The notes under the pieces: generated by a model
Told to the model about the DNA's origin: nothing
Databases searched by the model: none
What the model saw: only the letters and a program-made list of their open reading frames with translations
Shown here: piece after piece, positions 3,617 to 19,204 of the stretch
Layout of the letters: each line of letters begins with the position of its first letter
Numbering within the stretch: position 1 is the first letter of the stretch
Program-made: the position numbers and the translations under genes
IMG/VR virus record: IMGVR_UViG_3300043024_000042
Reading direction: 5' to 3' (one strand)
Length of the DNA: 64,000 bases
Source: a virus
Lineage: Duplodnaviria; Heunggongvirae; Uroviricota; Caudoviricetes

Positions 3617-3619
3617 CCT

Positions 3620-3811: not shown

Positions 3812-3942
3812 AATGGGGCACATCCAATTTGGCATACTCCAAGAGTTTGACGGTATGGATATTGGTACCGTAATAAAGGTGCTTGCCAGCGTGTATGCGG
3901 AGATAGAGATATGCAGCGCGGAACACGGAGGGATAGAGGAAT

Positions 3943-4485: not shown

Positions 4486-4751
4486 ACGGGGAATTACATC
4501 TGACGGTACAGAACAAAACATGGAATGAAGTTGTTAATGGTAGACAGAAATTCATCTATCGGGACACAACGAAGTATTTCCGTGACCGAATACAGAAACA
4601 GATACCCTACAAGGTGACGTTTCGCAAGGAGTACACCAACATTAGAATAAGTTACGAGGTGTTGGGTGTCACTGTCGGATATGGAGACCCGAAATACGGA
4701 AGTGACGAAAAGAAGAAGTATTATATTATTCAAATAGGTAAAAGAGTATAA
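4482..4751 (+). CDS. hypothetical protein, 89 aa
   Basis: ATGA overlap with the previous gene. Confidence 0.4.
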   Translation: MNGELHLTVQNKTWNEVVNGRQKFIYRDTTKYFRDRIQKQIPYKVTFRKEYTNIRISYEVLGVTVGYGDPKYGSDEKKKYYIIQIGKRV

Positions 4752-4752
4752 A

Positions 4753-5031
4753 ATGAAAACTATATATAAGTATTTGATTGGGAAACCCGGTGTACCGGTT
4801 GTGCTGCCGATGCCCAAGGGTGCGCAGTTCTGCGATGTGCAGATGCAGGGCGATAGCTTTGCGATGTGGTTCCTCGTTGATCCCGATATGGAGAAAGAGG
4901 ATAGAGTGTTTGAGTTGGTGGGTACCGGCTATAAAGTATACCCCAACATGGAATACAGAGGCACCGTTCAGATAATGGATGGTCGTGTTGTACTTCATTT
5001 GTTTGAACGTCTTAGACAGATTCCGGTATGA
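4753..5031 (+). CDS. hypothetical protein, 92 aa
   Basis: Tightly packed ORF. Confidence 0.4.
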   Translation: MKTIYKYLIGKPGVPVVLPMPKGAQFCDVQMQGDSFAMWFLVDPDMEKEDRVFELVGTGYKVYPNMEYRGTVQIMDGRVVLHLFERLRQIPV

Positions 5032-5291
5032 CAGAAAAGAGCATTAAGGTAATTGTGCTAATACTCTTTTCGGTCTTTTTCTGCCATACCTTATACGTCA
5101 AACACCTTCTGTATGAGGGTTATGAACGGCAGATGAGATTGATAGATAAGTATGAGCAGGCATTGTTTGAGTGTGACAGCCTTTTAAGGGATAAAATGAT
5201 GGAGACAATTTACCGTCAACAAAACATAAGTTATGAAGAGCAAGAAGATACGGAAAATATACCACAGACTGATAGCGGCGGTGCCTTATAA
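5028..5291 (+). CDS. hypothetical protein with an N-terminal TM helix
   Basis: ATGA overlap. Translation VIVLILFSVFFCHTLY. Confidence 0.35.
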   Translation: MTEKSIKVIVLILFSVFFCHTLYVKHLLYEGYERQMRLIDKYEQALFECDSLLRDKMMETIYRQQNISYEEQEDTENIPQTDSGGAL

Positions 5292-5601
5292 TATATACAC
5301 TGCCTTTCAGGAACAATATCCCGAACTGTTGGGCGAGCTAAAAAGTGAGAAAGACCTTTATATGGTTTGGTGTATCGAGACCCGGCAAATCGGTGTATCT
5401 TATCGGATACGTGAGGATTTCCCATCCAAAATAATGCACGAGGCTTCTTGCGATCGTCTTGACGATGGTCGTTGGTTCAGAAGCGAGTATCTGATAGACG
5501 AGCATACCAACACTTATAATGTATATGTCTATTTCCCTGAAAACATTTGGACCATTATGAACATTGTAAAAATGTGGAATAAGAAAAGAATTTATGACTG
5601 A
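5233..5601 (+). CDS. hypothetical protein; stop codon abuts leader copy 2
   Basis: ORF runs to a TGA at 5599-5601. The 5' end overlaps the previous gene, so the true start is probably internal. Confidence 0.35.
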   Translation: MKSKKIRKIYHRLIAAVPYNIYTAFQEQYPELLGELKSEKDLYMVWCIETRQIGVSYRIREDFPSKIMHEASCDRLDDGRWFRSEYLIDEHTNTYNVYVYFPENIWTIMNIVKMWNKKRIYD

Positions 5602-5702
5602 TAAAACGATATTCGGGCTGGCTGTACAGCCTTAGCGAGAGGGATTTTTCCACTCTTGAAATCATCTTTATATATTGATACATAACATATAACGTAAGAC
5701 GT
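5599..5702 (+). promoter_or_regulatory. CRISPR leader, copy 2 (identical to 2659..2762)
   Basis: Exact 104-nt duplicate of the array-1 leader, starting at the stop codon of the upstream gene. Confidence 0.6.
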
Positions 5703-6181
5703 GTTGTATGTTATCTGATTTTTCAGACGATATACAGCTCTAAGTCATAGTGATAGTTTATAGTAATGTTGTATGTTATCTGATTTTTCAGACGATATAC
5801 AGCCAGAAATTAGTAAGTATTCAAATTGGCTTGTTGTATGTTATCTGATTTTTCAGACGATATACAGCGAGGTACTCTTTTTATGGATTCCTTTCCTGTT
5901 GTATGTTATCTGATTTTTCAGACGATATACAGCAAGAGGAAAATCAGTGCATCACTGGTGCCTGTTGTATGGTATCTGATTTTTCAGATGATATACAGCG
6001 AAATAGATAAGAGTTCGCATAGGTTGTATGTTATCTGATTTTTAGATGATATACAGCCAAAGATAATAAAATCTATGACAGAGCGAGTTGTATGTTATTT
6101 GATTTCTCGGATGATATACAGCGCCAACGACGTTGGACTTTTAGAGTTGTATGCAGTTTGTAAAGCCGAATGATATACAGC
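5703..6181 (+). CRISPR. CRISPR array 2: 8 repeats with the same 36-bp consensus, 7 unique spacers of 23-30 bp, 3' repeats progressively degenerate
   Basis: Repeats at 5703, 5768, 5833, 5898, 5964 (2 mismatches), 6023 (35 bp), 6087 and 6146 (heavily decayed). Spacers at 5739-5767, 5804-5832, 5869-5897, 5934-5963, 6000-6022, 6058-6086 and 6123-6145. Confidence 0.85.
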
Positions 6182-6218
6182 GAACTGCCATTAGCATTAT
6201 TAACCAAAGCGATAATTT

Positions 6219-7319
6219 ATGATAATAACAAGAAAGATTCAGGTCTATGTCTCGGACGAGGATAAAGACCAAAGAAAGGAAATGGTTCACACCGTTTACA
6301 CATGGCGAGACCTTGTTAGGCGCACGGCAAACATGATTGTGGCGCACAAGTTCGTTCAGCAACAAGTCCGTGATTTCGTCTACTTGAAGGACGAGATTCA
6401 GGAGAAGTTCTACGTCAAGGATATCTTGAAGGAGGGCAAGGGTATGAGCGAGCAGAACACCACCTACCGCATCGCAGCGGATATGTTGAAGGGCAAAGTT
6501 CCTGCCGACATCTATTCCTGCCTTAATCAGGCGGTGGCGAACACCTTCAAAGAGACCATCAAGGATGTGAACACGGGTAAGGCGAGCGTGAGAAGTTACA
6601 AGAACAACATTCCCATGCCGTTCAGTGCGAAAGCCCTTTCCAATATCCATTGGTCGGAAGAGGATAACCGTTTCTACTTCACTCTGTTCGGTATTCCCTT
6701 TGCAACATCCCTCGGTCGTGACAGAAGTAACAACAAGGTGATCATCGAAAGAACCATCAGCAAGGAGTACAAACTTTGCTCGAGTTCCTTGCAGATTGAT
6801 GATAAGAAAAAGAAGATGTTTCTCTTGCTCTGCGTGGATATACCCAAGAAGGAGGTCGAGTTGGAGAAAGGCAAGCAACTGCTCGCCACCCTCGATGTAA
6901 TGGCACCCATTGTCGCTGTTATCGGCAGCAAGCGGTATGAGATAGGAACCAAGGAAGAGTTTACCTACCGCAGGGTGCAACTGCAAGAGGCGGTAAGACG
7001 CTGCCAGATTGAGAATAGATACAATAATGGCGGGAAGGGTCGCAAGCGCAAGACGCAGGCGATAGAGCGGTTTCATGAGAAGGAGAATAACTACGTAGAT
7101 ACGAAACTGCACACCTACTCCCGTATGCTGGTCGATTTGGCGGTCAAGAACAAATGCTCCGAGATTGTCCTGCTTGACCAAAAGCGCAGGGAGGACGAGG
7201 CGAAGGAGGATAATCAGAACGGAGAGCCTTTCGTTTTGCGTAACTGGTCTTACTTCGGGTTGGAGAGTAAGATTGATTACAAGGCCAAGACGGTTGGGAT
7301 TGCGTTAATTAAAAAATAA
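6219..7319 (+). CDS. Cas12f/TnpB-like RuvC-fold protein, C-terminally truncated (no Zn finger or RuvC-III), RuvC-II Glu replaced; TldR-like dead mini-Cas12 architecture
   Basis: Recalled from memory, not by search: similarity to Un1Cas12f1/TnpB. TnpB-type N-terminus RKIQVYVSDEDKDQRKEMVHTVYTWRDLVRRTANMIV. WED/RuvC-I block MFLLLCVDIPKKE..LLATLDVMAPIVAVIG, cf LNLSIDVPKID..IIGGIDVGVKSPLVCAI. Block GGKGRKRKTQAIERFHEKENNYVDTKLHTYSRMLVDLAVKNKCSEIVLLDQKRRED, cf HGAKNKLKPITILTEKSERFRKKLIERWACEIADFFIKNKVGTVQMENLESMKRKED. C-terminus NWSYFGLESKIDYKAKTVGIALIKK, cf FWPYAEMQNKIEFKLKQYGIEIRKV. The ORF stops where the Cas12f Zn finger would begin. The start is preceded by the variant element GCATTATTAACCAAAGCGATAATTTATG. 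Confidence 0.6.
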   Translation: MIITRKIQVYVSDEDKDQRKEMVHTVYTWRDLVRRTANMIVAHKFVQQQVRDFVYLKDEIQEKFYVKDILKEGKGMSEQNTTYRIAADMLKGKVPADIYSCLNQAVANTFKETIKDVNTGKASVRSYKNNIPMPFSAKALSNIHWSEEDNRFYFTLFGIPFATSLGRDRSNNKVIIERTISKEYKLCSSSLQIDDKKKKMFLLLCVDIPKKEVELEKGKQLLATLDVMAPIVAVIGSKRYEIGTKEEFTYRRVQLQEAVRRCQIENRYNNGGKGRKRKTQAIERFHEKENNYVDTKLHTYSRMLVDLAVKNKCSEIVLLDQKRREDEAKEDNQNGEPFVLRNWSYFGLESKIDYKAKTVGIALIKK

Positions 7320-7330
7320 TTCAGATAAAG

Positions 7331-7909
7331 ATGGGAGAAGAAGAGAAGATACTGGATGTGGACGGGAAGCCCGTAGGATTTGGTAAATGCAACCTTGAAG
7401 GAATACAAGGTTTGGGAGAGGATTTTAATGCGTTGGCCGACGATATGGCCAATGATGTTAAGCAAATATTAGGTCACTACCTTGTGCAGAAATGTATAGA
7501 TGAATTTGTCAATATCGAAGAGAAGGAGCCTGATCATACCGAACCCGAAAAAGAATCCCTTACTTATGGTAAAGCGCAGATTAATTATGAAACTGGCGAA
7601 CTTGTAAAGACGAGTATAGGCTCGTATATTTGTTCCAGTGCAACGCTCCCCGTGTCCGCCCCATTTTATAGCCGCTCTATATGGGAATATTGGGTGTATT
7701 TCTGTTTGAGAGGCCAAGTCCCAGCTGATCCTGACTTTAAGGACTACGCTTACTCCAATTTCTGGCGCATCGTCAAAGAGATGATATACCACAAGAAGAG
7801 AATGGGGCTTGCAAAGTCGGAAGGATTCAGGAGACACCACGAGAAACGATTGAAGAGTTTGGAAAATACTTATAAATTTAGTTTGACTTGGAATGGAAAC
7901 GGAAATTAA
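7331..7909 (+). CDS. hypothetical protein; N-terminus (GKCNLEGIQGLGEDFNALADD) may be a decayed RuvC-III remnant in a different frame from 6219..7319
   Basis: KCN...EDFNALADD loosely resembles Cas12f KCNFKENADYNAALNI. Only one Cys, so no Zn finger. About 150 further residues are unlike Cas12f. Confidence 0.3.
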   Translation: MGEEEKILDVDGKPVGFGKCNLEGIQGLGEDFNALADDMANDVKQILGHYLVQKCIDEFVNIEEKEPDHTEPEKESLTYGKAQINYETGELVKTSIGSYICSSATLPVSAPFYSRSIWEYWVYFCLRGQVPADPDFKDYAYSNFWRIVKEMIYHKKRMGLAKSEGFRRHHEKRLKSLENTYKFSLTWNGNGN

Positions 7910-8534
7910 AATGAATGACCATGTAATCCTCAAACCAAGCTACTCGCATTGGCAGGTCAAGAACGTGGATTACAACTATGACACGGATGGGAAATATTTC
8001 ATCTGTAACGGATTTGGTTTAACCAGGTGGGTTAAGCCCAGTGAGATTGAGGTTAAGAATCCAAAATTTTCATTTGGCGAGGAAGTTATTTTTCGAGAGC
8101 AGCGCGATGGTGATGATTTTGCGATGGTCTGTGTATTCGTTTTGGGCTTTCATTGGAATATTAATGAAAGATGTTATATGTACTTTATGTCTAATAACAA
8201 GTGGTATTCGGAGGATAAAATACTGGACGTCTGTTCTTTCGGCGAGTGCCAAAAGGATAAGGAACCCAATCTCGCCTCCAATCCCGACAAGTCCGACAAA
8301 CTTGCTGGTGAGTTGGATAAGATAAATGCTCCTATGACCATGCTGTTCCGTCTCTTGTTTACCGACTTGCAGCACGTCCTTTCAAAATACAACGCTCGCA
8401 TTGAGGTCGGAAAGGATTGCAAGCTGCGGCTCCGCATCCGTGTCAATGACTATGACCGGTGCTTTAAGGGACCGAAGGCCATCAGGGATGTTACGGATTA
8501 TACTTCTTTCAGAGAGGATTTGCCGTTTGAATAA
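7893..8534 (+). CDS. hypothetical protein, 213 aa
   Basis: ORF only. No recognisable motif. Confidence 0.4.
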   Translation: METEIKMNDHVILKPSYSHWQVKNVDYNYDTDGKYFICNGFGLTRWVKPSEIEVKNPKFSFGEEVIFREQRDGDDFAMVCVFVLGFHWNINERCYMYFMSNNKWYSEDKILDVCSFGECQKDKEPNLASNPDKSDKLAGELDKINAPMTMLFRLLFTDLQHVLSKYNARIEVGKDCKLRLRIRVNDYDRCFKGPKAIRDVTDYTSFREDLPFE

Positions 8535-8543
8535 AAATAGGAA

Positions 8544-8795
8544 ATGGAACAAGAACAAAACAAGACCTTTCAGGAGGCGGTATTCGTTATCCTTTGCGTT
8601 ATCGCCTCCCCTATTCTGGTATTGTGCATTATCATCGACACGATACGCTCCTTTGTTAGCCTCGGTTCGAGGTTATCCTTCTATGAAGCCACGGAAACGA
8701 CACTTGACTTCGTTTTCTTTCTTGCAACCGAAATCGACGATTTAAGAAAAGTGATATGGAAAGCATTGAAAAATATAGTGCGGAGCGAGCCTTGA
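8544..8795 (+). CDS. small membrane protein
   Basis: Hydrophobic core AVFVILCVIASPILVLCIIIDTI. Confidence 0.4.
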   Translation: MEQEQNKTFQEAVFVILCVIASPILVLCIIIDTIRSFVSLGSRLSFYEATETTLDFVFFLATEIDDLRKVIWKALKNIVRSEP

Positions 8796-9136
8796 TACAG
8801 ACCGCATCGCCCGACAAGTTGAAGTCACTCTACGAGATGTGCTGCGAGACGTATGCGCAGCGTTTCTGCGAGATGTATGACTTTGATAGATTCTACTGCT
8901 ATTGGGTAAGTGATGAGCCTGGCGGTGTATTCATCATCAATGATGTGGAATATTCGCTGGGCATGGAGGAAATCAAACTCTGCGTGGACCGGTCAGTACC
9001 CTTTGAAGAGTTCAAGGCATGGTGGGACCGCGAAATGGATAACCTGGATGATAATACCCTGGAGTTTAAGGATGAGAAAATCAACCTGCGCTCGTGGCTT
9101 AACGGCTATCATGGAAAGGAGGCGGCAAATGCCTAA
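8756..9136 (+). CDS. hypothetical acidic protein, 126 aa
   Basis: ORF. Translation YCYWVSDEPGGVFIINDVEYSLGMEEIK. Confidence 0.4.
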   Translation: MESIEKYSAERALIQTASPDKLKSLYEMCCETYAQRFCEMYDFDRFYCYWVSDEPGGVFIINDVEYSLGMEEIKLCVDRSVPFEEFKAWWDREMDNLDDNTLEFKDEKINLRSWLNGYHGKEAANA

Positions 9137-9467
9137 CGTGATTGTATGTCTTATCGCTTGCATCGCCTCTTTCCTTGCCGGGAAAATGACTGCGGAGAAG
9201 AGGCAGGACACCGTGGAGGGTGTGCTTTATAATGTCCTTCTGAATTTCAAGTATTTTGTCCTACATCATATCGAGACGTGCAAGGATTGCATCGGCAATG
9301 CCAAGGACGAGAAACAGAAGGACTATCTGAATGAAAGCATCGGCAAGAGCCATGATATTGTCGGTGCGGTGGAACGATTGATTAAAGAGTTGGAAGATGA
9401 TGGAACTGACGATGGAACCGAGCCGCCCGCAGAGACGGAGGATGGAAGATGGTCGCTTGGTCTTTAA
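9131..9467 (+). CDS. hypothetical protein with an N-terminal TM anchor and an acidic C-terminus
   Basis: ATG at 9131 (MPNVIVCLIACIASFLAG...). The ORF-track 8910 start lies inside the previous gene. Confidence 0.35.
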
Positions 9468-9798
9468 TAAGGGCTATACCCCTTGGAATAAGGGAAAGAC
9501 ATACAAGGAACTATTTACCCCGGAGAGGATAAAGTCCATCCACGACAAGATGGATCCCATCAGGCGAAGGACGAAACATGGAGGTCCTAACCCCAAGAAG
9601 TCCAAGCCTATTGTGGCCATCAGCGACGGGAAGCTTATCGCCCGTTTCAGAACTGCGAGGGAGGCGGCTGCGAAGGTCGGCTCCAACAAGACGAGCATAA
9701 ACAGGTATTGTACCAAGAAGTACAATGATAGGAAGAGGGGCTGGCAATGGTTCTTCGAGAGCGAAATCGAGAAGTGGGCCTGCCTCGTAAATTGTTAA
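9397..9798 (+). CDS. NUMOD-type DNA-binding protein; homing-endonuclease-like DNA-binding module with no recognisable nuclease domain
   Basis: GYTPWNKGK (NUMOD3-like) and IVAISDGKLIARFRTAREAAAKVGSNKTSINRYCTKKY (NUMOD1/HTH-like). Confidence 0.4.
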   Translation: MMELTMEPSRPQRRRMEDGRLVFNKGYTPWNKGKTYKELFTPERIKSIHDKMDPIRRRTKHGGPNPKKSKPIVAISDGKLIARFRTAREAAAKVGSNKTSINRYCTKKYNDRKRGWQWFFESEIEKWACLVNC

Positions 9799-9820
9799 TC
9801 GAATCAAAAACCTTAGAGAT

Positions 9821-10312
9821 ATGAAAGTAAAAATCAAGAAACTGAACGCGAAGGCCATCCTGCCCAAACGTGGGTCGATGGACGCGGCTGGCTATGACAT
9901 CTATGTGGCCGAGGATACCGTGGTACATAATGGCAGGCAGGTGATACCTACCTACCTTTCCGTGGAACTTCCGAAATGGCATTATGCAGGCATCGAGCCG
10001 CGTAGCGGTAACGAGAGCAAGGGTATCGAAGGCATCCCCTACCATATATGGGCCTGCCGTGAGTTGGGTATCGAGAAGCAGCGTTTTGACTGCGATGTGC
10101 TGCGCGGTATCGTAGACGCGGATTACAGAGGTCCCATCGGTGTTATCGTGAACAACCATGGCTGCGAGTTTGTCCTGCCGAGGGGCAGCAAGATTGCGCA
10201 GATGGTGCTGCACGAGTTCAAGACAATGGATTTTGAGGTGGTCGATGAGCTGTCTGACACCGAGCGTGCAGGCGGCGGTTTCGGGAGTACGGATCATGCG
10301 AAAGAAGGTTGA
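9821..10312 (+). CDS. dut: dUTP diphosphatase (dUTPase)
   Basis: All five dUTPase motifs are present: AAGYDIY, PRSGNESKG, GIVDADYRGPIG, SKIAQMVL and RAGGGFGSTD. Confidence 0.85.
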   Translation: MKVKIKKLNAKAILPKRGSMDAAGYDIYVAEDTVVHNGRQVIPTYLSVELPKWHYAGIEPRSGNESKGIEGIPYHIWACRELGIEKQRFDCDVLRGIVDADYRGPIGVIVNNHGCEFVLPRGSKIAQMVLHEFKTMDFEVVDELSDTERAGGGFGSTDHAKEG

Positions 10313-10622
10313 TACATCCGTCAATGGAGAGGTGCTACCCGAGCAGAAGCGGGAGCAGCGTTATCCTCTCCGTCTCAATTCCAACACCGTCATTATGGTC
10401 AGGAAGGAGAATCTGAATGAGGAATATGCCGAGAAGAAGCGTATCCAGTTAGGACTTATAGCCGTTGAGAAGCCCAAGATGAAGGGCAACCAACGTGTTA
10501 CCATTACGGAGAATGAGTTGCGCAGACTGCGTGAAGAGGGTGTGACCGTCAAGGATATCGCCCACGAGTACAACTGCGGACCGAGAACGATAGCAAGACG
10601 AATTAAAGAGTTTGGATTATGA
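10296..10622 (+). CDS. small HTH DNA-binding protein
   Basis: C-terminal helix-turn-helix TVKDIAHEYNCGPRTIARRIKEFG. ATG at 10296 overlaps the dut 3' end. The ORF-track start at 10158 is an over-extension. Confidence 0.45.
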   Translation: MRKKVDTSVNGEVLPEQKREQRYPLRLNSNTVIMVRKENLNEEYAEKKRIQLGLIAVEKPKMKGNQRVTITENELRRLREEGVTVKDIAHEYNCGPRTIARRIKEFGL

Positions 10623-11590
10623 CATTAAGAGTATTCGAGGCTTTTGCAGGATATGGCTCGCAAGCCATTGCATTAAAGCGACTTGCAAGATTTTACCCCC
10701 CCCTAAAATTGGAATTTGTAGGGATTTCGGAAATTGATAAAAACGCTATCATTGCTTATAAAGCCATACATGGAGACATCCGTAACTATGGCGATATATC
10801 GGCTATTGATTGGAGTGAAGTTCCTGATTTCGACCTGTTTACTTACTCTTTTCCCTGCCAGGATATTTCCAACGCTGGCTTGCAGAAAGGCTTTACAGAG
10901 GGCAGCGGGACGCGCAGCTCGTTGCTTTGGGAGTGTAAGAAAGCGATAGAGGTCAAACATCCAAAATACCTGCTGATGGAGAATGTGAAGGCACTTACCC
11001 AAAAGAAGTTCATGCCATATTTCAAGATGTGGGTGGATTGTTTGGAGGGTTATGGATACAAGAACTTTTGGAAAGTGCTTAACAGCAAGCACTACGGGGC
11101 TCCGCAAAACAGAGAGCGGGTGTTCATGGTATCCATCCGTGATGATGGCGACAATCCATCATACACTTTTCCCGAACCGTTCCCCTTGCAGAAACGTCTC
11201 AAAGACATTCTCGAGAAGGAAGTGGATGAGAGTTTCTATCTGCGCCAGGAGCAAGTGCAGCGCATCGTGGCACATTGCGAGAGAAAGGTTGCGGAGGGCT
11301 GCGGGTTCAAGACGAACTTCACTGATGGCAGCAGCGTGAGCGGAGCTATCAAGACCAAGGAGGGTAATCGCGAGTACGATACCTACGTGAAGGAACCTGC
11401 GCCAAAATACGGGAATAGCAGATTGAACAAGATGATCAAGGATGGGAAGATTGATCCGGACAAAACAGAGTGGGTGGATGCTTACAACCAACCCACCAAC
11501 GATGAGATATCCGGCACCATCCTTACCCGAGTGGATGCGAGCAATCATTACTTAATCAACGAGGGGGGTAAAATGCGTGAACCAATATGA
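10619..11590 (+). CDS. C5-cytosine DNA methyltransferase, N-terminal catalytic part (motifs I-VIII)
   Basis: FAGYGSQ (motif I), ISEIDKNAIIAY (motif II), FPCQDIS (motif IV PCQ), LMENV (motif VI), QNRERVF (motif VIII). Contains a C8 tract at 10696-10703. Ends just after a G6 tract at 11563-11568. Confidence 0.85.
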   Translation: MTLRVFEAFAGYGSQAIALKRLARFYPPLKLEFVGISEIDKNAIIAYKAIHGDIRNYGDISAIDWSEVPDFDLFTYSFPCQDISNAGLQKGFTEGSGTRSSLLWECKKAIEVKHPKYLLMENVKALTQKKFMPYFKMWVDCLEGYGYKNFWKVLNSKHYGAPQNRERVFMVSIRDDGDNPSYTFPEPFPLQKRLKDILEKEVDESFYLRQEQVQRIVAHCERKVAEGCGFKTNFTDGSSVSGAIKTKEGNREYDTYVKEPAPKYGNSRLNKMIKDGKIDPDKTEWVDAYNQPTNDEISGTILTRVDASNHYLINEGGKMREPI

Positions 11591-12431
11591 TGAGAATGGT
11601 GTGCAGCGGCATTTGCAGGATAGAATCTTTGATTCAGAAGGCGTGAGTACCGCTGTGACTGTATCCTTCCATCCAAACATAATTGATTATGGAGACAGAA
11701 CAGATGATTCTAAAACCAGTCAGGACGGAGATAGCAAAACAACTCCGCAAGATGGGAATTGAAAAGTTCGGCAATCGGCAACTGATACCTTCCAAAGATG
11801 GAGTGAGTAACACGATTACCACCGTCCTTAAAGACAATCTTTTGCTGGAGCCAATCACTTGCGCATCCCGTAAGCGTGGTAGTGTTCACAAGATTGAATT
11901 GGGGGGGTAATTGCGAACGCTATTACCACTATCAATACAGACAGCATGATTGCAGAACCTATAAAGCAAGTTGAGAGTGAAATTAAAGATTAAGCAGGCA
12001 ACGAAGCAGGGATGGATAGAGGTTCCAGAGGGGGGTATTTGACATTGCCTACCCCAACAGCAAGAACCGAAGGGGTCGCGTTCAGGATGGCGGCATGGTC
12101 TGCCCTGCATTAACCTGCGAGCCGATAATCTGCGTGTATGAAGGATGTGATAATCAAGGCGAGCGTTCACCCGCTCAGCCACAAACTTGAATTTAAGGGA
12201 TGGGGAAGTTTTGGTGACGTTTGTCCTGCTTTAAGGGCGACTGACTATAAAGCCCCCGTTGTGATGATTATGGAACAAGAACCTATTAATACGGATAGCG
12301 AGGGTAACGCTTACACCATTACAGCAAGGTACCCTATACTCAACGCTGCGAATGTCATGGGAGGTAATCACTTCCCTAAGACGGTGGTTAGCGAGCATGA
12401 CGAGAATTACCCCCCCTACCCGATAATTTAG
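11553..12431 (+). other. fragmented target-recognition-domain (TRD) region of a multispecific C5-methyltransferase: at least 4 TRD-like cores spread over three frames, separated by G/C homopolymer tracts
   Basis: TL-type TRD cores appear in different frames: EGVSTAVTVS (frame 0, ~11640), DGVSNTITTV (frame 1, ~11800), NAITTINTDS (frame 0, ~11920) and EGNAYTITARY (frame 0, ~12310). Tracts: G6 at 11563-11568, G7 at 11901-11907, G6 at 12030-12035, C7 at 12410-12416. Confidence 0.5.
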
Positions 12432-12442
12432 ATTTAAGAAAG

Positions 12443-12895
12443 ATGGCGAAGAAAGAAGTTAAGCGTGCCGCGGACGAACTGAAAAAGATTGCCCAAGCGT
12501 CACGGAGTTGTGATGTCGGTGTGACTATCAATCCCGACAATTCGCTCAGACCCTTCAATAAGGGCAGTAAGGCGAAGGATGGAATTAGTGAGTATTGTAC
12601 CGACTACGAGTGCGGTATCGGTTCCACGACCATCGCCGCACGGCCCAACAAGGTCTACGGTGATTCAACCCGTTATCGAATCCGCAAGCTGACCCCGGTT
12701 GAGACGGGTCGCTTGATGGGTATGGATGATGAGGATATACAGAAGATGAAGGATGCGGGATTGAGCAAGTCCGCCATGTACAAGCTGCATGGTAACTCCA
12801 TCGTGGTGGATGTGCTGTTCTATATCTTCCGCAATCTCTTCATTGATGAGTTCAAGAACCCGCAACCGAAAGGGCAGTTGACATTGGATTTTTAA
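12443..12895 (+). CDS. C5-cytosine methyltransferase, C-terminal part (a fifth TRD core plus motifs IX-X)
   Basis: GSTTIAARPNK (TRD core), RKLTPVETGRLMGMDD (motif IX) and KLHGNSIVVDVLFYIF (motif X). One extra C in the 12410-12416 tract would fuse it to the upstream frame-0 TRD. Confidence 0.75.
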   Translation: MAKKEVKRAADELKKIAQASRSCDVGVTINPDNSLRPFNKGSKAKDGISEYCTDYECGIGSTTIAARPNKVYGDSTRYRIRKLTPVETGRLMGMDDEDIQKMKDAGLSKSAMYKLHGNSIVVDVLFYIFRNLFIDEFKNPQPKGQLTLDF

Positions 12896-12904
12896 TTGTA
12901 GTGT

Positions 12905-13264
12905 ATGGATAGATTAGCGTATTACGGAACAAGCAGCGGCCAAAGAGGACATTACTTCACGGCTATCAGGGGCAAGTTCCCCGACGCGGAGAAGGCTCAT
13001 CTTATAGAAGTCGTTGATGATTGCTGGCTGGAGAGCCATCTATACCAGCATAGCGATGGCAAGCCCACATTGGTCTACATCCCCGTGAGCGGTAAATATT
13101 ATGCCGTTTATGCGGTCAATCGCAGCAAGAATGACAATCGCGGTGGGAGTATAACCGCTTTGATAGCGGATTATGTTCCGGAGAAATCCCGAGAGGCTTG
13201 CATTGAGGAATTTAAGAGTGAGATAGCAAATAACGCATTTCTTAAAAATCAGTTCGATATATGA
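12905..13264 (+). CDS. hypothetical protein, 119 aa
   Basis: ORF. No recognisable motif. Confidence 0.4.
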   Translation: MDRLAYYGTSSGQRGHYFTAIRGKFPDAEKAHLIEVVDDCWLESHLYQHSDGKPTLVYIPVSGKYYAVYAVNRSKNDNRGGSITALIADYVPEKSREACIEEFKSEIANNAFLKNQFDI

Positions 13265-14176
13265 AAATAGGATTGGTAGACCTTGATGCAAGGGTTGGAG
13301 GCGGATTCCCCAATCTCGCTCTGATGAAAATATCCGCTTGGCACAAGGCAAGGGGTGACGATGTGGATTGGTTCACTCCGCTCTGGGGGGGGGTACGACA
13401 AGGTATATATAAGCAAGATATTCACCTTCACTCCCGACACGGACGATTACTTTGGCTGCGAGGTAGTCAAAGGTGGTACCGGCTACGACATTGAAGGGAA
13501 ACTTCCCGATGAGATAGAGGCGGTGCAGCAGCCTGACTACTCCATCTACCCCAACGTAAACTTCTCCGTGCAGTTCTACTCGAGAGGTTGTATACGCGCC
13601 TGCCCTTTCTGTTTGGTAAGAAGGAAGGAGGGTTACATCCATCCGGTCGAGCCGTTAGGCTTGAATCCGAAAGGTGATTGGATAGAGGTGCTTGACAATA
13701 ACTTCTTTGCCAATCCCGAATGGAAGTCCGCTATCAATCATCTTATCAGTTGCAAACAGAAGGTGAACCTGCATGGTGTGGATATCCGTATAATGAACGA
13801 GGAACAAGCGTACTGGCTCAACAAGGTCCATTTAAAGAAGAATATCCATATTGCGTGGGATATGCCGCAGATAGACCTCACGGATAAGTTAAGGGAGATG
13901 ATAAAATATATCAAGCCCTACAAACTGACCTGCTACGTGCTTGTCGGTTTCAACTCCACCATTGAGCAGGATTTGTACAGACTGCGCAGGTTAAAGGAAC
14001 TTGGCATTACCCCTTTCGTCATGCCGTTCCGTGACTACGAGAATAAGCATAAGCCCTCCGCTTATGAGCGTGACCTTGCTCGCTGGGCCAACAAGATGTG
14101 GCTGTTCAAGTCCATGGACTTCCCTGACTTTGAGCCGAGGAAAGGATTCAAATGTTCAAATTACTTAAATAAGTAA
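13261..14176 (+). CDS. radical SAM enzyme, frame broken at the G9 tract 13385-13393
   Basis: CxxxCxxC cluster SRGCIRACPFC. The N-terminal segment (MKIGLVDLDARVGGGFPNLALMKISAWHKARGDDVDWFTPLWGG) is in frame 1, and the body is in frame 2 from the tract onward. Eight G would fuse them. Confidence 0.6.
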
Positions 14177-14179
14177 AAG

Positions 14180-14341
14180 ATGAAAACAATAAAACTTCTT
14201 TTAGTGATTATTTTAATTGTTGTTTTGTTCTCATGCGCTCTTAGGTTATTGAGCGCGTCCTCTACTTATGCCAATATTTTAGGCTTTTCGATTATGGTTT
14301 TGGAACTTGGTGGTATTTTTGAGTATTTAACTGGAGAATGA
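14180..14341 (+). CDS. small membrane protein or lipoprotein, 53 aa, not in the ORF track
   Basis: MKTIKLLLVIILIVVLFSCALRL... is hydrophobic with an LFSC lipobox-like motif. Ends with an ATGA overlap to the next gene. Confidence 0.35.
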   Translation: MKTIKLLLVIILIVVLFSCALRLLSASSTYANILGFSIMVLELGGIFEYLTGE

Positions 14342-15129
14342 AAAAGTTAAGTTTCTTAAAGGTGCTTTTTATAGCACTTATTTCAATGATGATGTTCTCA
14401 TCTTGTGCAGAGCGCATTGATGCAGGACATGAAGGAATTCTCGTAAACCTCTATGGTGATGAGAAAGGTGTGGGTGACGTGTCAATGTGTACCGGCATGG
14501 TGTGGTACAACCCTATCACGACCGCGGTATACGAATATCCTACATTCGTGCAGACTGTGGACTACGAACCGTTCACCATCAATGCAAAGGATGGATCCGA
14601 GTTTACTGTGGACCCGACAATCTCCTTGAAGATTATTGACGGGAAATCTCCCGAAGTGTTTAAGAAGTACAGAAAGGAGTTGAAGGATGTAATCAATACT
14701 ACGCTCTACAATTACGTAAAGAACGCTTTCCGTATTCAGCTGAATAACTTCACTACGGATTATATTGTAAGCAATCGTGATAGTATTGAAAACGCGATTG
14801 AAAAGTATCTTTCATCAGACTTAAAGAAAGAGAATTTTCAACTGGAGCAACTTACTTCCGGCTTGAAGTATCCCGAGATTATCGTGAAGTCTGTTAACGA
14901 GAAGAACAAGGCGATACAAGACGCACAACGAGCGGAAAACGAAGTGAAGGTAGCCGAAGCCAACGCAAAGAAGGTGTTGGTGGCAGCGCAAGCGGAAGCG
15001 GAAGCAAACCGATTGAAGCAGCAGGCCCTCACTCCGCAGATTCTCGAAAAGATGTGGATTGACAAGTGGAACGGAGTTTTGCCGGTATACGGACAAGTGC
15101 CTACACTCTTTAAGGATATCAGCAAATGA
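14338..15129 (+). CDS. SPFH/band-7 (prohibitin-like) family lipoprotein
   Basis: Signal peptide with lipobox (MMMFSSCAE). SPFH-type body with a C-terminal Ala/Glu-rich coiled coil (KVAEANAKKVLVAAQAEAEANRLKQQAL). Confidence 0.6.
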   Translation: MKKLSFLKVLFIALISMMMFSSCAERIDAGHEGILVNLYGDEKGVGDVSMCTGMVWYNPITTAVYEYPTFVQTVDYEPFTINAKDGSEFTVDPTISLKIIDGKSPEVFKKYRKELKDVINTTLYNYVKNAFRIQLNNFTTDYIVSNRDSIENAIEKYLSSDLKKENFQLEQLTSGLKYPEIIVKSVNEKNKAIQDAQRAENEVKVAEANAKKVLVAAQAEAEANRLKQQALTPQILEKMWIDKWNGVLPVYGQVPTLFKDISK

Positions 15130-15383
15130 CAGCGTATTATTATGTGATAGTCTTGCTGCTCGACCTTTGGATTTGGAGGTTGAGACGCAAAGCCACAGAC
15201 TTGAAGGCCCCACGATGGATATTGCTGTTTTTCTTTCTTATCTCCTTAATACCTATTGTCGGGATGGGTCTTGAATTGGCTTTGATATACATTCTGCAAC
15301 GATGCCTTTGGGAACAAGGTGTAAGGACGAGGGGGATGATTTTATTGTTTAAGGTATATCAGTATTTCACAAAGGAGGTTTGA
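15126..15383 (+). CDS. small membrane protein, 2 TM helices
   Basis: YYYVIVLLLDLWIW...ILLFFFLISLIPIVGMGL. ATGA overlap with the SPFH gene. Confidence 0.4.
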   Translation: MTAYYYVIVLLLDLWIWRLRRKATDLKAPRWILLFFFLISLIPIVGMGLELALIYILQRCLWEQGVRTRGMILLFKVYQYFTKEV

Positions 15384-15384
15384 T

Positions 15385-15672
15385 ATGGGCTTGTACGAAA
15401 TACTCTATATTGTAGTGTCAGTTATCTCTTTAGGCTCGTTTTTAATCCTTCATTATCTCTATGAGGTAAGTAAAAATAACGTGGCGAAGATAGTATTCCC
15501 GCTTTGGCTGTACCTTATCTATCTGCTTGCTATGCTTATACCCTTCCTCAATTTGGCATTGTCGATAGTCGTTTTCTTTGCGTTGCTAATGTGTGCATCG
15601 GATGATGATGTGGAGTGGCGACCGAGGGGTGTAATTAAGATAATAGCGGATATTCTCTCGAAAGAGTTTTAA
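15385..15672 (+). CDS. small membrane protein, 3 TM helices
   Basis: Very hydrophobic ORF directly downstream. Confidence 0.4.
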   Translation: MGLYEILYIVVSVISLGSFLILHYLYEVSKNNVAKIVFPLWLYLIYLLAMLIPFLNLALSIVVFFALLMCASDDDVEWRPRGVIKIIADILSKEF

Positions 15673-15716
15673 TTGGGATGGGCGGCATTGCCGCTCTCCC
15701 TTAAATTGGAAAACAC

Positions 15717-16034
15717 ATGATATTCAAAGTCTATAATGCCGCAGGCCCGCTTCACGACGCGGACCAATGCGAGGTGAACCCATACGAATCCATCCTGCGA
15801 CCGAGTGATGATCCGCTCATCCTTGGCACGGTTGAGATTCGTTCCCTTGAAGAGTTGCGCGACTTCCAACTCAAATGCGCGGAACTGTCACGCAGCGATG
15901 ATTTGTTAAATAGATGTGGTGAGGATATGTGGATGAGAGGGTTTGTCCCTTGCGCTTTTGTCAGAGTGACTTTCCACCGGGAAAGCGGGGAGAAAAACTA
16001 TGACGGGAGTATCTGCATCCAGGACCACTATTAA
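15717..16034 (+). CDS. hypothetical protein, 105 aa
   Basis: ORF only. Confidence 0.35.
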   Translation: MIFKVYNAAGPLHDADQCEVNPYESILRPSDDPLILGTVEIRSLEELRDFQLKCAELSRSDDLLNRCGEDMWMRGFVPCAFVRVTFHRESGEKNYDGSICIQDHY

Positions 16035-16054
16035 TCTCTAATGCTGGATAAACG

Positions 16055-16426
16055 ATGATGAACGACAAACAACTTAGGCAGACGATTGACTACTCATGGT
16101 CCAATGGCCGTGAGGATGAGAGCGAGACCCCTGCGGAGTACACGCAGGGATTTATTGCAGGTATGCAGTTCGCCGAGCGTGGCGAACCGGTACCCTATGA
16201 TAGGGTGCGGCTATCTCTCGAATGGGAGTTCTCTTTGAGTGACTTGAAGGATTACTACAAGTCTATGGGTATGTCCCTTGTTGGGGTGGAAGAAAAGTTT
16301 GACGAGATTCGCGGACGGATGTACGACGTGCCTTTCTCTATTCTCGGAGAGCCGAGATTGACGAAGTTGCAGCTCATTGGTTATACCCTCCGCAAATTGG
16401 AAGAATTGGTGGAAAAGGATGGGTAG
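16055..16426 (+). CDS. hypothetical protein, 123 aa
   Basis: ORF only. Confidence 0.4.
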   Translation: MMNDKQLRQTIDYSWSNGREDESETPAEYTQGFIAGMQFAERGEPVPYDRVRLSLEWEFSLSDLKDYYKSMGMSLVGVEEKFDEIRGRMYDVPFSILGEPRLTKLQLIGYTLRKLEELVEKDG

Positions 16427-16727
16427 ATTTATTGCACGACAGCCGAACGGACGCATCTGCGTGTTCTCGACTGTACTGGACGATTTAATTGCTTATAACC
16501 TTACGGATAGGCAGTATGTGGCATGGTGTGTCAAGGATGCCATTCGTGAGGCGAATAGGCAGGCCAATGAGGATATCAACCATTTCATGCACGATTTCTC
16601 GGATGTGAAGAATGAGTTCTCTCCTGGAAATGAAGCGGACCTCGCTACATTCAAAAAGAGATTGAAGCAGATGGGTGATAAGGAATGGAAAGATTTTATT
16701 TGTGATATTAATGATGGAAAGGAATGA
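16377..16727 (+). CDS. hypothetical protein, 116 aa
   Basis: ORF. The start probably lies near the stop of the previous gene. Confidence 0.35.
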   Translation: MVIPSANWKNWWKRMGRFIARQPNGRICVFSTVLDDLIAYNLTDRQYVAWCVKDAIREANRQANEDINHFMHDFSDVKNEFSPGNEADLATFKKRLKQMGDKEWKDFICDINDGKE

Positions 16728-17059
16728 AGAAGAAAATAGCAAGATGGCTTTATAATGTGGCGGTGAAACTTAATCCGTCATTGTTTAAGTGTGTGACAAT
16801 CCGTGAACTTGATACGAGGGTGCAGACCGTTTCAGCGGAGGTTTGCTTTGACCCTGAATATCTTTGTGCCATTTATGACAATAACGAGCAAATTCAGAAT
16901 ATGATGCAGGAGGAAGCCGCACATAGACTGACAAAGGATTTGGGTAGTTTTTGCACGTTCGAGAAGAGAGTGGATGATGTTGGCCGTGTTTATATGCGTG
17001 CCTATATCTTAGTTGGCAAACCTGATATTATTCGATATGGGAAAGGATTGGAAGGGTGA
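16724..17059 (+). CDS. hypothetical protein, 111 aa
   Basis: ATGA overlap. Confidence 0.4.
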   Translation: MKKKIARWLYNVAVKLNPSLFKCVTIRELDTRVQTVSAEVCFDPEYLCAIYDNNEQIQNMMQEEAAHRLTKDLGSFCTFEKRVDDVGRVYMRAYILVGKPDIIRYGKGLEG

Positions 17060-17638
17060 TGCCAACGGGGTGTTCAAAACACTCGGGGCATCGAATCATA
17101 ACAAGGACGGAGAGAGGGAGAGTAATGACTACTATGCCACCGACCCGATAGCGATAGACAAACTAAGAAAGGAGATAGATCTTCCCGAAGTGATTTACGA
17201 GCCTGCTTGTGGTAGCGGACATCTTGCCCTGCGGCTTATCGAGTACGGGCATGAGGTTATATCATCGGACTTGGTGGATAGAGGGCATGGAAAGGGTGGT
17301 GTGGATTTCCTGAAAACGGAATCATTGCCGGACGATCGGATAACCTGCATCCTGACGAATCCACCCTACAAGTACGCGACAGAGTTTGTCGTTCATGCCC
17401 TTAAACTGCTCCCCGAAGGAGGGCTGTGTTGTATGTTTCTCAGGACGCTGTTTTTAGAGGGCAAGACGCGGTTTGAACGTATCTTTAGTATTACCCCCCC
17501 TATTGCGTTTTGCAGTCGTCAGAGCGCATCAGATGCGCCAAAAACGGGGAGTTTGACGGGTCGGCTGGCTGTCAGTCTTATGCCTGGTTTGTGTGGAGGA
17601 AAGGTTGGTACGGGGAACCTACTATCAGGTGGATATAA
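17013..17638 (+). CDS. N6-adenine DNA methyltransferase, frame broken at the C7 tract 17494-17500
   Basis: EPACGSGHL (motif I) and TNPPY (motif IV). After the C tract the -1 frame reads YCVLQSSERIRCAKNGEFDGSAGCQSYAWFVWRKGWYGEPTIRWI*, a typical MTase C-terminus ending at 17638. Eight C would restore a single ORF. The current frame runs to 17684 as low-complexity sequence. Confidence 0.7.
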
Positions 17639-17769
17639 TAAAAGGGCGACGCTTCGCCCTCTGTCCTTAATAAACCATTATTAAAACAAATCATACTATG
17701 AAGAAACATGCGTAATTAACGTGAGACAAATATACGAAAGTCTTTCTTATCTCCAAAATTTAGGGAATA

Positions 17770-17800
17770 AAAAGTGGGACGATTTCTCGTCCCACTCTTA
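17770..17800. terminator. bidirectional rho-independent terminator candidate
   Basis: AAAAAGTGGGACGATTTCTCGTCCCACTCTT: a 9-bp perfect stem flanked by an A-run and T-rich sequence. Confidence 0.5.
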
Positions 17801-18033
17801 AACTACCACGAATTGAGAGACTTTTCATCAATTCATGCGCAAAGTTACGCAAAGTTTTGTAAACCACAAACTTTTTGACGGATTTTGTGTATAGTGCGCG
17901 GGAAATCCGCTTTTCTTTAATTCTTTAATTCGCTAACAGAAGTTAAAGTCTATTAAAGAAGTATTCAAGTAGTATCATTATTCGGGATTAATTCATATAT
18001 TTGCTCCCGAAATTTAATCAAACTACTACGAAT

Positions 18034-18405
18034 ATGGAAAGAAAGTCAAAAGAAATGAGCTTCACGCGCTCTGAAAACGTGCAGCAGCCGTTGTTTGACA
18101 ATGGCATCACTCTCGCTGGAACAGACGAGAAAGACCCCATGAAAGCCCAACTGGTTGCGGAAGGGTACAAAATTGTATCGGAAAACAGCTTTGGAGTAAC
18201 GGCCACAAGGATGGGAACAAAGCCCATGTTCCTTGCCAAGACCAAGGATGGCTATATGCCCAGCGACACGAAGGTATCCCTTATGATTCCCGAATCCCTT
18301 TATTCACAGATGCGCATTGTTTGCGTCAAGGAGAAGGCAAGCCTTACGCAGGGCCTTGTGCAGGCAATAATGGAGTATTTGACCAAAAGAGGAATTGAGT
18401 ATTAA
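18034..18405 (+). CDS. small protein upstream of parA, possible partition or DNA-binding partner
   Basis: ATG at 18034. C-terminus VSLMIPESLYSQMRIVCVKEKASLTQGLVQAIMEYL is ribbon-helix-helix-like. Its position next to parA suggests a partner role, but function is not established. Confidence 0.3.
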   Translation: MERKSKEMSFTRSENVQQPLFDNGITLAGTDEKDPMKAQLVAEGYKIVSENSFGVTATRMGTKPMFLAKTKDGYMPSDTKVSLMIPESLYSQMRIVCVKEKASLTQGLVQAIMEYLTKRGIEY

Positions 18406-19204
18406 AAGAGTTATGCTTATGGTTATTTCCATTATTAACAACAAGGGAGGTGTAGGCAAGACTATGACTGCCCAAAACCTCGGTGCTGCGCTTGCCCTTT
18501 GTGGCAAGCAGGTTTGTCTTATCGACCTCGACAGCCAGCACAATCTGACCACTCGATACGAAAACACGGGAAGGGAAGAGGTTAAAGACGGTGAACTGTA
18601 TTCCAATCAGACCATTGAGGATTACATTGACAATCCACGGCTACCCATTCGCCCGTTGAAGGTGAAGGACAATCTCTATATCATCCCATCGACCACAAGG
18701 CTCGCAAGGGTGAGCGCTGCCATGTACAATCTTAGCAAGGGACAGCAACCAAGCTACAAACTTTCCAATATATGCAATGCTATGCGCCAGGGCTTCGACT
18801 ATATTATAGTGGACTGCGCACCGAGCATGAGCGCTTTGATGGTGAACGCTGCGGTAGCCGCAGACATGATCATCATCCCCGTGAGTTGTCAGGATGCCCT
18901 GATGGGAGCAGGTGAGGGTGTATTTGAGTTGATGGACAACAACAAACTCGACACTCCTTATTACTTCCTCCAGACTATCTATGAGGACCGTTTGAAGTCC
19001 AACCGCGACCGCAAGCGTCAGTTACTATCCAAGGCTTTTGACCATACTTTGCACACGGAGATAAAGAGGAATGAGTATCTGAACCTCTCTGCGGAGTGCG
19101 GTCAGGATGTGTACGAGTATGCTCCCAAAAGCAGGGGAGCGGAGGATTACATGACTTTGGCATTAGAAGTAATCGGTATTACCAGCAAAAGAAGAAAGGA
19201 GTAA
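18395..19204 (+). CDS. parA: ParA/Soj-family partition ATPase
   Basis: Deviant Walker A ISIINNKGGVGKTMTAQNLG and Walker B IIVDCAPS. 269 aa. Confidence 0.85.
   Translation: MSIKRVMLMVISIINNKGGVGKTMTAQNLGAALALCGKQVCLIDLDSQHNLTTRYENTGREEVKDGELYSNQTIEDYIDNPRLPIRPLKVKDNLYIIPSTTRLARVSAAMYNLSKGQQPSYKLSNICNAMRQGFDYIIVDCAPSMSALMVNAAVAADMIIIPVSCQDALMGAGEGVFELMDNNKLDTPYYFLQTIYEDRLKSNRDRKRQLLSKAFDHTLHTEIKRNEYLNLSAECGQDVYEYAPKSRGAEDYMTLALEVIGITSKRRKE

Follow-up and report, generated by a model that had tools for sequence, protein, structure and literature searches.

The window analysed here, a 64,000-nucleotide (nt) stretch of the Caudoviricetes virus record IMGVR_UViG_3300043024_000042, carries at positions 10619-12895 a C5-cytosine methyltransferase (C5-MTase) gene in which an intact N-terminal part (motifs I-VIII) and an intact C-terminal part (motifs IX-X) are separated by target recognition domain (TRD) modules read in three frames. 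On balance we think it probable that this locus encodes a split, hyper-multispecific phage enzyme, the content of its open reading frames (ORFs) being toggled by contingency tracts, homopolymeric runs of G or C within the coding sequence (CDS). Tract-length differences between near-identical phages suggest, without proving it, that the phage marks its DNA variably. Related loci and proteins are referred to below by L and P numbers, respectively. The two parts of the enzyme that carry catalytic motifs are encoded as follows.

10619-11590, plus strand: N ORF, 323 amino acids (aa), motifs I-VIII plus modules M1a and M1b
12443-12895, plus strand: C ORF, 150 aa, module M8 plus motifs IX (RKLTPVE) and X (GNSIVV)

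The N ORF matches positions 2-234 of PF00145 (E 4.6e-53) and contains FAGYGS (motif I), FPCQDIS (IV), MENVKAL (VI) and PQNRERVF (VIII), while the C ORF matches positions 258-322 of the same family (E 1.8e-8). The nearest solved structures are those of M.MpeI (4dkj) and M.HhaI; RIRKLTPVETGRLMG (motif IX) and HGNSIVVDV (motif X) of the C ORF align with residues 312-388 of 4dkj, and within M8 (GIGSTTIAARPN) the stretch GIGSTTIAA pairs with GIGPTLTAS of M.MpeI, just ahead of motif IX. An earlier note, made from the sequence alone, had described intact N- and C-terminal catalytic parts some 850 nt apart, and the PF00145 matches in both ORFs and a gap of 853 nt bear this out. Motifs I-X do not lie on one polypeptide, since seven frame changes interrupt them, a feature shared in outcome with M.AquI and M.EcoHK31I, accepted C5-MTases that likewise do not carry all motifs on a single chain (PMC3404938).

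The variable region holds more than the earlier note had supposed. It is indeed that of a multi-TRD enzyme, with several tandem, separable modules between motifs VIII and IX, but the proposed number of up to five falls short of our count of 8-9 TRD-like modules, two of them inside the N ORF. The six TRD cores quoted in the earlier note, those of M1b, M2, M3, M4, M7 and M8, are all present (in frames f0, f1, f2, f1, f1 and f0, respectively), and three further TRD-like cores, absent from that note, are SVSGAIKTKEG, GGMVCPALTC and GDVCPALRATDYK. The modules upstream of M8 are distributed as follows.

Within 10619-11590, plus strand: modules M1a (SVSGAIKTKEG) and M1b (ISGTILTRVD), inside the N ORF
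11577-11762, plus strand: module M2 fragment (VNQYDENGVQRHLQDRIFDSEGVSTAVTVSFHPN...), frame +1 relative to the N ORF; in-frame homolog in P0129
11704-11910, plus strand: module M3 ORF from ATG 11704 (MILKPVRTE...DGVSNTITTV...ELGG), 68 aa
11907-11993, plus strand: module M4 fragment (VIANAITTINTDSMIAEPIKQVESEIKD, then a stop); homolog: the ...IANALTSVQKDSMIADP module of P0007 and P0009, both intact enzymes
11977-12042, plus strand: start of module M5, GTG 11977 (VKLKIKQATKQGWIEVPEGG), at junction shift (ii), which has no homopolymer
12036-12190, plus strand: remainder of module M5 (VFDIAYPNSKNRRGRVQDGGMVCPALTCEPIICVYEG...); in-frame homologs in P0122, P0125 and P0137
12138-12431, plus strand: ORF from ATG 12138, 97 aa, modules M6 (SVHPLSHKLEFKG..CPALRATDYK) and M7 (EQEPINTDSEGNAYTITARY, EGNAYTITARY)

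Followed along the gene, frame f0 gives way at tract B to f1 (M2, EGVSTAVTV), which is succeeded from about 11700 by f2 (M3, GVSNTITTV); at tract C the reading passes to f1 (M4, NAITTINTDS), from GTG 11977 to f2 (M5, KQATKQGWIEVPEGG), at tract D to f0 (the rest of M5, RRGRVQDGGMVCPALT), from ATG 12138 to f1 (M6, M7) and at tract E to f0 (M8, motifs IX-X). Four of these seven frame changes occur at G/C tracts. The other three, which the earlier note does not mention, lie at about 11700, 11977 and 12138 and have no homopolymer; all are +1 shifts situated at module junctions and common to the window, L001 and L010. Junction (i) separates M2 from M3, a module with in-frame homologs in P0122, P0125 and P0137, and its shift is among those common to L001 and L010. 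Junction (ii) contains an imperfect duplication of linker sequence; L002 and L003 have ATG where the window has GTG 11977, and their C-type ORF starts further upstream, its ATG overlapping the preceding stop as ATGA. At junction (iii) L001 and L010 hold a different module with the same +1 offset, while L002 is in frame at this site (CVYEG/MEQEPINTD). No module contains a stop codon in its own frame. The isolated middle fragments were not recognised in a Pfam search, and in a PDB sequence search only the core and M8 aligned, so that no module can be given a specificity.

Five homopolymeric tracts lie within the gene.

10696-10703, plus strand: tract A, C8, in frame; codes for YPPL, which lies between motifs I and II
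11563-11568, plus strand: tract B, G6, out of frame; frame restored by G5 or G8
11901-11907, plus strand: tract C, G7, out of frame; with G8, M3 and M4 would form one ORF
12030-12035, plus strand: tract D, G6, out of frame; frame restored by G5 or G8
12410-12416, plus strand: tract E, C7, out of frame; with C8, M6-M7 would be continuous with M8 and motifs IX-X

The earlier note had placed homopolymers at several module junctions, and in fact four of the five tracts (B-E) coincide with frame changes, tract A being in frame; the residues that the tracts encode belong to Gly-Gly or Pro-Pro linkers, either inside a module or joining two. A length of 8 preserves the frame at all five tracts, and a length of 5 does so at B and D as well. 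The consequences for the encoded products differ from tract to tract. With G6 at tract B the N ORF stops seven codons past the tract, giving a fragment of 323 aa, whereas G8 extends it to 381 aa and includes M2. At tract C, G7 yields 68 aa from ATG 11704 and G8 yields 96 aa (M3 + M4); at tract D, G6 yields 21 aa from GTG 11977 and G5 yields 70 aa (M5). Tract E at C7 leaves 97 aa (M6 + M7) and a separate 150 aa from ATG 12443, whereas C8 gives one C fragment of 252 aa (M6 + M7 + M8 + IX-X). The starts of the ORFs with catalytic motifs are ATG 10619 for N and ATG 12443 for C, or ATG 12138 for C when tract E is C8.

Such tracts are in clear excess. The 2.3-kb gene contains five G/C runs of at least 6 nt against 0.55 expected (maximum 2 in 100 first-order Markov simulations), and the whole window six of at least 8 nt against 0.62 expected in simulations, whereas A/T runs of at least 7 nt are rarer than expected (4 versus 14.8). 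In modification genes 9 of 26 Pro-Pro or Gly-Gly pairs are encoded by CCCCCC or GGGGGG, but elsewhere only 1 of 79 (Fisher p = 9e-6), and eight of the nine G/C runs of at least 7 nt fall in four DNA-modification genes in the first 18 kb. From this distribution the G/C tracts appear to be selected for, beyond the C5-MTase gene as well as within it. Around tract E the conservation extends to the nucleotide level.

12393-12445, plus strand: near-invariant block of 53 nt across tract E and ATG 12443, in a comparison of the window lineage with that of L002

The coding DNA that flanks this block shows a synonymous divergence (dS) of 0.7-1.7. A block of this kind would fit an internal start region or a dual-frame constraint.

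Tract lengths differ between relatives, and with them the frame. Tract A is C8 (in frame) in the window, L001 and L003 and C7 (out) in L002. Tract B is out of frame in the window (G6) and L001 (G10) and in frame in L010 (G8) and L013 (G5). At tract C the window, L025 and L027 have G7 (out), while L001 and L010 have A followed by G7 (in). Tract D is G6 (out) in the window, G5 (in) in L001 and L010 and G8 (in) in L002 and L003. Tract E is out of frame as C6 in L027 and as C7 in the window and L025, and in frame as C8 in L001, L010, L002 and L003; a C9 allele (out) was deduced from protein P0253 rather than read from DNA. Such differences occur between near-identical genomes. Over 7,174 nt, L002 and L003, which come from sibling samples, differ by 3 single-nucleotide polymorphisms (SNPs) and 1 indel, and this indel is tract A (C7 versus C8). 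L001 and L010, compared over 2,828 nt, show 3 SNPs and 2 indels, located at tract B (G10 versus G8) and at a G tract designated D' (G9 versus G8). The window and L027 form a further such pair, with C7 and C6, respectively, at tract E. When the window is compared with L001 and L010 in well-aligned DNA, all net frame-changing indels lie at G/C tracts, including G9 versus G8 in a radical-SAM gene. A distant lineage has an out-of-frame G6 at the equivalent of D', its protein being found on at least 24 contigs and the G6 being confirmed in all six loci examined, while intact relatives of this lineage are in frame at that site. The tracts are kept at the same sites across lineages with dS above 1. 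In-CDS repeats whose length shifts the frame, polymorphism among near-identical genomes, and an excess concentrated in one functional class are features of contingency loci, and the locus displays these three.

These observations uphold part of what the earlier note had proposed, namely that changes in tract length could switch which TRDs are in frame: the lengths are polymorphic among close relatives and do have frame effects. The proposal had been cast in terms of a single polypeptide, and this does not hold. Re-translation with each of the five tracts varied from -2 to +2 (3125 combinations) gave no continuous I-X ORF (0 of 3125), the longest product from ATG 10619 being 381 aa, because the three non-homopolymer +1 shifts remain in every combination. 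Switching of a single ORF is therefore rejected, by the criterion that the note itself had set.

That sequencing or assembly errors in homopolymers have created apparent frameshifts in an intact gene is barely credible. Four of the seven shifts do fall at homopolymers, the classic site of such errors, but three have none, and tract lengths are identical in the two other window-type assemblies examined, which come from two samples. One of these, L025, is 100% identical to window positions 3119-19090, including all seven tracts in that span; the other, L026, has tracts A and B as in the window. The 323-, 61- and 150-aa ORFs of the window are recorded on 7-8 contigs (the N protein P0241 on 8, the C protein P0252 on 7), the out-of-frame allele of the distant lineage recurs on the contigs described above, and length differences reach 4 nt (G6 versus G10). 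Neither the A9 run (52061) nor the T9 run (35369) interrupts the frame in which it lies, and at window positions 52494-62300, which served as an assembly-quality control, a single ORF of 3268 aa (9.8 kb) is intact. Finally, error cannot account for the presence of the tracts or for their confinement to modification genes. Contig L025 (JGI 3300043107, Ga0484778_000068), 34 kb in length, shares the coordinates of the window, so that the two apparently begin at one point of the genome, perhaps a defined phage end; the ORFs of the window are also present on a contig of 110 kb.

In its own frame each module shows the substitution pattern of protein-coding sequence. In comparisons of the window with L001 or L002, the ratio of nonsynonymous to synonymous divergence (dN/dS) is 0.03-0.20 in the modules' own frames and mostly above 1 in the wrong frames, with values of 0.20 for M3 (versus L001), 0.045 for M5b (versus L001) and 0.027 for M7 (versus L002). 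For M2 versus L002 the differences by codon position number 5, 2 and 24, and the concentration at third positions in own frames is significant throughout (binomial p from 7e-4 to 6e-10). The dS of adjacent modules is mosaic, ranging from 0.045 to 2.0, which points to frequent recombination.

Purifying selection on the modules bears directly on a rival explanation, pseudogene decay, which the earlier note had itself offered as an alternative. According to this explanation, a once-intact multispecific methyltransferase is being lost, the tracts are merely the first sites to have frameshifted, and production of the enzyme has ceased in the window strain. The seven frame changes, three of them fixed and common to L001 and L010, would be expected on this account, as would the failure of every tract combination to restore the gene, the contraction of tracts to 6-7 nt, and the out-of-frame state of four of the five tracts and of two other modification genes, the tract lengths being the same in two other window-type assemblies. 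However, every module, including those downstream of the shared shifts, has a dN/dS well below 1 when read in its own frame, and stop codons are absent from all module frames. The homopolymeric codon pairs are specific to modification genes, the tracts occupy the same sites in lineages with dS above 1, and the N and C ORFs that could rebuild the enzyme are intact, each with a start codon. On this evidence decay is disfavoured, and we judge it rather unlikely; because the window strain, with its contracted tracts and many off states, could be nearly locked off, it stays alive as a rival.

Relatives of the locus show that the same modules are used in several architectures. A search with the stitched variable region returned 301 proteins. 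All eight modules recur in frame, in varied order, in P0122, P0125, P0129, P0137, P0138 and P0176. Among these relatives are intact single-chain enzymes in which the modules vary in order and number (P0137, 636 aa; P0007, P0019 and P0053, 554-564 aa), as well as proteins that consist only of TRD modules and motifs IX-X (P0122, P0125, P0129, P0138 and P0176, 363-461 aa). Modules are also gained and lost, M3-M4 and M6 being absent from L002 and M6 from L027. L016 (positions 3001-4344) has a 447-aa ORF with TRD modules and motifs IX-X only and no adjoining N (I-VIII) ORF; either the catalytic half is encoded elsewhere in the phage or the protein works with another enzyme.

Seven further loci (L004-L009 and L018) encode motifs I-VIII in an N ORF of 253-265 aa and, downstream, the remainder of the enzyme in a C ORF of 256-363 aa, and an identical N-ORF protein with the same split occurs on contigs from three different samples. 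This is the layout of M.AquI, with separate ORFs, each with its own start, for motifs I-VIII and for the distal variable region with motifs IX-X. In L004 (4796-4918) and L007 (4799-4804) an in-frame stop separates the N ORF from the C ORF, which share one frame. The L004 spacer, of about 120 nt, has a C8 run (4889-4896), and L007 has C8 at an FTPP site (4701-4708) where L011 and L012 have an out-of-frame C7.

We propose that one catalytic core serves a string of interchangeable TRD modules, in a large, mostly metagenomic family whose members are often split into N and C parts. Tract length would change by replication slippage, in a rapid and reversible manner, and each tract would determine if the modules that follow it remain part of their ORF. 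In the present state of the window (A in frame, B-E out), the ORFs with catalytic motifs would be the 323-aa N fragment and the 150-aa C fragment, which would have to assemble non-covalently. A C8 allele at tract E would furnish the C fragment with three modules, and G8 at tract B would add M2 to the N fragment, while M3-M4 and M5, cut off by the three fixed +1 junction shifts, would form small ORFs of their own, each beginning with ATG or GTG. Any role of these orphan ORFs, M3-M5, is conjectural.

Several considerations weigh against this proposal. The three fixed, homopolymer-free shifts leave M3-M5 joined to neither catalytic fragment, and we know of no mechanism that uses free TRD peptides. 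The tract polymorphism could be slow and evolutionary rather than a reflection of switching within a population. Window-type tracts are contracted (G6, G7, C7), with the same lengths in the two other window-type assemblies compared by DNA, which argues for low rates of change at tracts of 6-7 nt; such tracts should slip less, and the strain may be fixed in the off state. In the window strain four of the five tracts, together with the radical-SAM and N6-adenine methyltransferase genes, are out of frame, and so many out-of-frame genes also fit relaxed selection. Moreover, the low dN/dS could have been acquired in intact genes elsewhere and then imported by recombination.

Another explanation of the out-of-frame modules is that they form a silent TRD cassette archive, untranslated in place and kept as recombination donors for the expressed gene ends or for co-infecting relatives. 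The strongly mosaic divergence by module (dS 0.045-2.0) is consistent with such exchange, as are the presence at one site, with an unchanged frame offset, of different modules in the window and L001, the gain and loss of M3-M4 and M6 in L002 and of M6 in L027, and the imperfect linker duplication at junction (ii). Nevertheless, we consider an archive improbable, because no recombinase, inverted repeat or conserved crossover site was identified (no repeat search across the locus was made) and because the cassettes would lie between two halves of an expressed gene, unlike those of known cassette systems.

The three homopolymer-free junctions also invite the suggestion of recoding, whereby ribosomal +1 frameshifting at these junctions or transcriptional slippage on the G/C runs would produce a full-length enzyme of about 765 aa. 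All three shifts go in the +1 direction, the window, L001 and L010 have them in common, and each downstream frame is open across its overlap with the upstream ORF. On inspection of the sequence, however, the junctions lack a common slippery or shifty-stop motif. The only motif that they have in common by eye is [A/G]TGA, which we do not regard as evidence of recoding. Seven consecutive events would give a negligible yield, and the existence of in-frame relatives at each tract means that recoding is not needed for function. Recoding is for these reasons very improbable, and we retain the split enzyme with tract-dependent ORF content as our preferred interpretation.

The C5-MTase gene is one of four modification genes in the window that contain G/C tracts, the others encoding an N6-adenine methyltransferase, a radical-SAM protein and a PAPS-reductase-like protein.

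13385-13393, plus strand: G9 tract that frameshifts the radical-SAM gene (13261-14176)
17494-17500, plus strand: C7 tract that frameshifts the N6-adenine methyltransferase gene (NPPY motif; about 17013-17684)
1232-1239, 2035-2042 and 2113-2122, plus strand: C8, C8 and G10 tracts of the PAPS-reductase-like gene (about 1190-2331)

In the radical-SAM gene L001 and L010 carry an in-frame G8, and the protein repaired to G8 matches phrog_9298 end to end (E 2.8e-126). The N6-adenine methyltransferase matches phrog_799 at 187-336 up to the tract and at 338-379 in another frame directly after it (17501-17635). The PAPS-reductase-like gene matches PF01507 (E 1.1e-19) and phrog_424; neither its likely N-terminus (MDIKFTLEEALAKCPPP) nor its C-terminal continuation of 95 aa shares the frame of the remainder, and no family match was found for the continuation. 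The presence of the same type of tract in these three genes would be explained if the phage maintained a set of contingency loci that diversifies the marks on its DNA, and such diversity could serve as a hedge between restriction-modification (R-M) and methylation-dependent restriction. A more far-reaching version of this idea is possible, and we put it forward tentatively: about a dozen slippery G/C tracts in four modification genes would act as a combinatorial switchboard, generating sub-populations of virions with different modification patterns. In the C5-MTase the tracts would set which TRDs sit on the N or the C subunit, so that the recognition repertoire, and not mere on/off expression, would be phase-variable, and the phage would benefit by bet-hedging between hosts with classical R-M and hosts with methylation-dependent restriction.

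The sole G/C run of at least 7 nt outside the modification genes is a C8 at 36577-36584, in an AT-rich intergenic region between the divergent genes 35457-36380 (minus strand) and 36972-38498 (plus strand), where it could be a promoter-spacing tract. Elsewhere in the window, two stretches of about 400 nt (2659-3059 and 5599-6000) are 83% alike and contain repeated GGTTGTATGTT-type units about 65 nt apart, which could be iterons, an origin or repeated promoters, and a single tRNA-Met (anticodon CAT) lies at 46527-46600, in the structural region. Among the relatives, L003 has an array with a 27-nt period upstream of the methyltransferase (reverse-complement 1-480; staggered self-similar blastn matches against L002 1-144), and L002 contains a gene for a 5675-aa polyvalent protein (ParB, ResIII and LPD domains).

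Searches beyond these metagenomic relatives yielded little. A protein-based scan of viral contigs with the C ORF found no relative, and an exact 22-mer scan found none among metagenome contigs and only L003 among viral contigs. Matches of the locus to GenBank phages by blastn were short and restricted to the conserved catalytic core. A tblastn search of 50,697 GenBank phage records with the 374-aa TRD region gave one weak match, to Dulem virus 40, a lemur-gut virus (34% over 29% of the query), and none to a Bacillus phage, so that GenBank phages include no annotated close relative. The earlier note had likened the enzyme to those of the Bacillus phages SPR, phi3T and rho11s; no kinship with them was apparent in this search, and the resemblance is accordingly one of architecture only. 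A scan of genome contigs gave two distant matches, to an uncultured Clostridium (50%) and to a Prevotellaceae metagenome-assembled genome (29%), which do not settle the host.

Multispecific phage C5-MTases, two-subunit C5-MTases, bacterial phase-variable methyltransferases and phage contingency loci are each known separately. In our literature search we found no description of their combination, i.e. of tracts that partition the TRDs of a split enzyme and of tracts distributed across a phage's set of modification genes, nor a phage-borne tandem-TRD C5 enzyme among phase-variable methyltransferases. Phage contingency loci have been recognised only recently, and mainly in receptor-binding genes. 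If our interpretation is correct, the near restriction of tracts to modification genes would show that anti-restriction marks are under bet-hedging, which bears on the tension between methylation as a guard against classical restriction and the exposure of methylated DNA to methylation-dependent nucleases. The multi-TRD C5-MTases of metagenomes form a large and essentially undescribed family, with up to about eight modules and often split into N and C parts, which could supply new specificities and constitutes a natural experiment in split-enzyme assembly. Because tract state and methylation can be read on the same molecule by long reads, the idea is directly testable.

The closest architectural parallel is provided by the multispecific C5-MTases of Bacillus phages (M.SPRI, M.Phi3TI, M.Rho11sI, M.SPBetaI and M.H2I), which are encoded by single intact ORFs with about 3-5 TRDs. 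Like these enzymes, the window gene is phage-borne, has one core (I-VIII and IX-X) with tandem TRDs in the variable region, and presumably serves in anti-restriction; unlike them, it is in pieces, with 8-9 modules and G/C tracts, and its multispecificity is a prediction from sequence. As regards the division of the core, the subunit genes of M.AquI and M.EcoHK31I lie in overlapping or alternative frames. These two are natural two-subunit C5-MTases, and fragment complementation within the variable region has been described for M.SssI and others (PMC3404938). In both of them, as in the window and in L004-L009 and L018, the core is divided in the variable region, so that the larger part has motifs I-VIII and the smaller part the distal variable region and motifs IX-X. 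However, M.AquI and M.EcoHK31I have one specificity, two parts, no homopolymer tracts and a place in chromosomal R-M systems, whereas the window locus has up to five ORFs, two of them without a catalytic half.

Variable tracts in DNA-modification and phage genes have precedents of their own. In bacterial phasevarions, phase variation affects Type III mod and Type I hsdS genes (PMC12707154), and slippage of repeat tracts alters the expression or specificity of a methyltransferase, as it would here if the window tracts slip; phasevarion methyltransferases are host genes with regulatory roles, however, and their specificity changes through shuffling of Type I hsdS or through allelic TRDs of mod. 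In phages, polyG tracts occur in receptor-binding genes of Campylobacter Fletchervirus phages (Sorensen 2021, as cited in PMC12633550 and PMC12823448), and a preprint reports homopolymer loci in T2 and T4 and mentions polyG in a methylase gene of Bordetella phage BPP-1 (bioRxiv 10.1101/2025.10.21.683753). These loci and those of the window are alike in having homopolymers in phage CDSs, where changes in length shift the frame and create, or in the window would create, sub-populations. Whereas the phage loci studied so far involve receptor-binding genes and assorted T-even genes, those of the window are concentrated in four genes for DNA modification, one gene having up to five to seven tracts, and partition TRD modules instead of merely turning a gene on or off.

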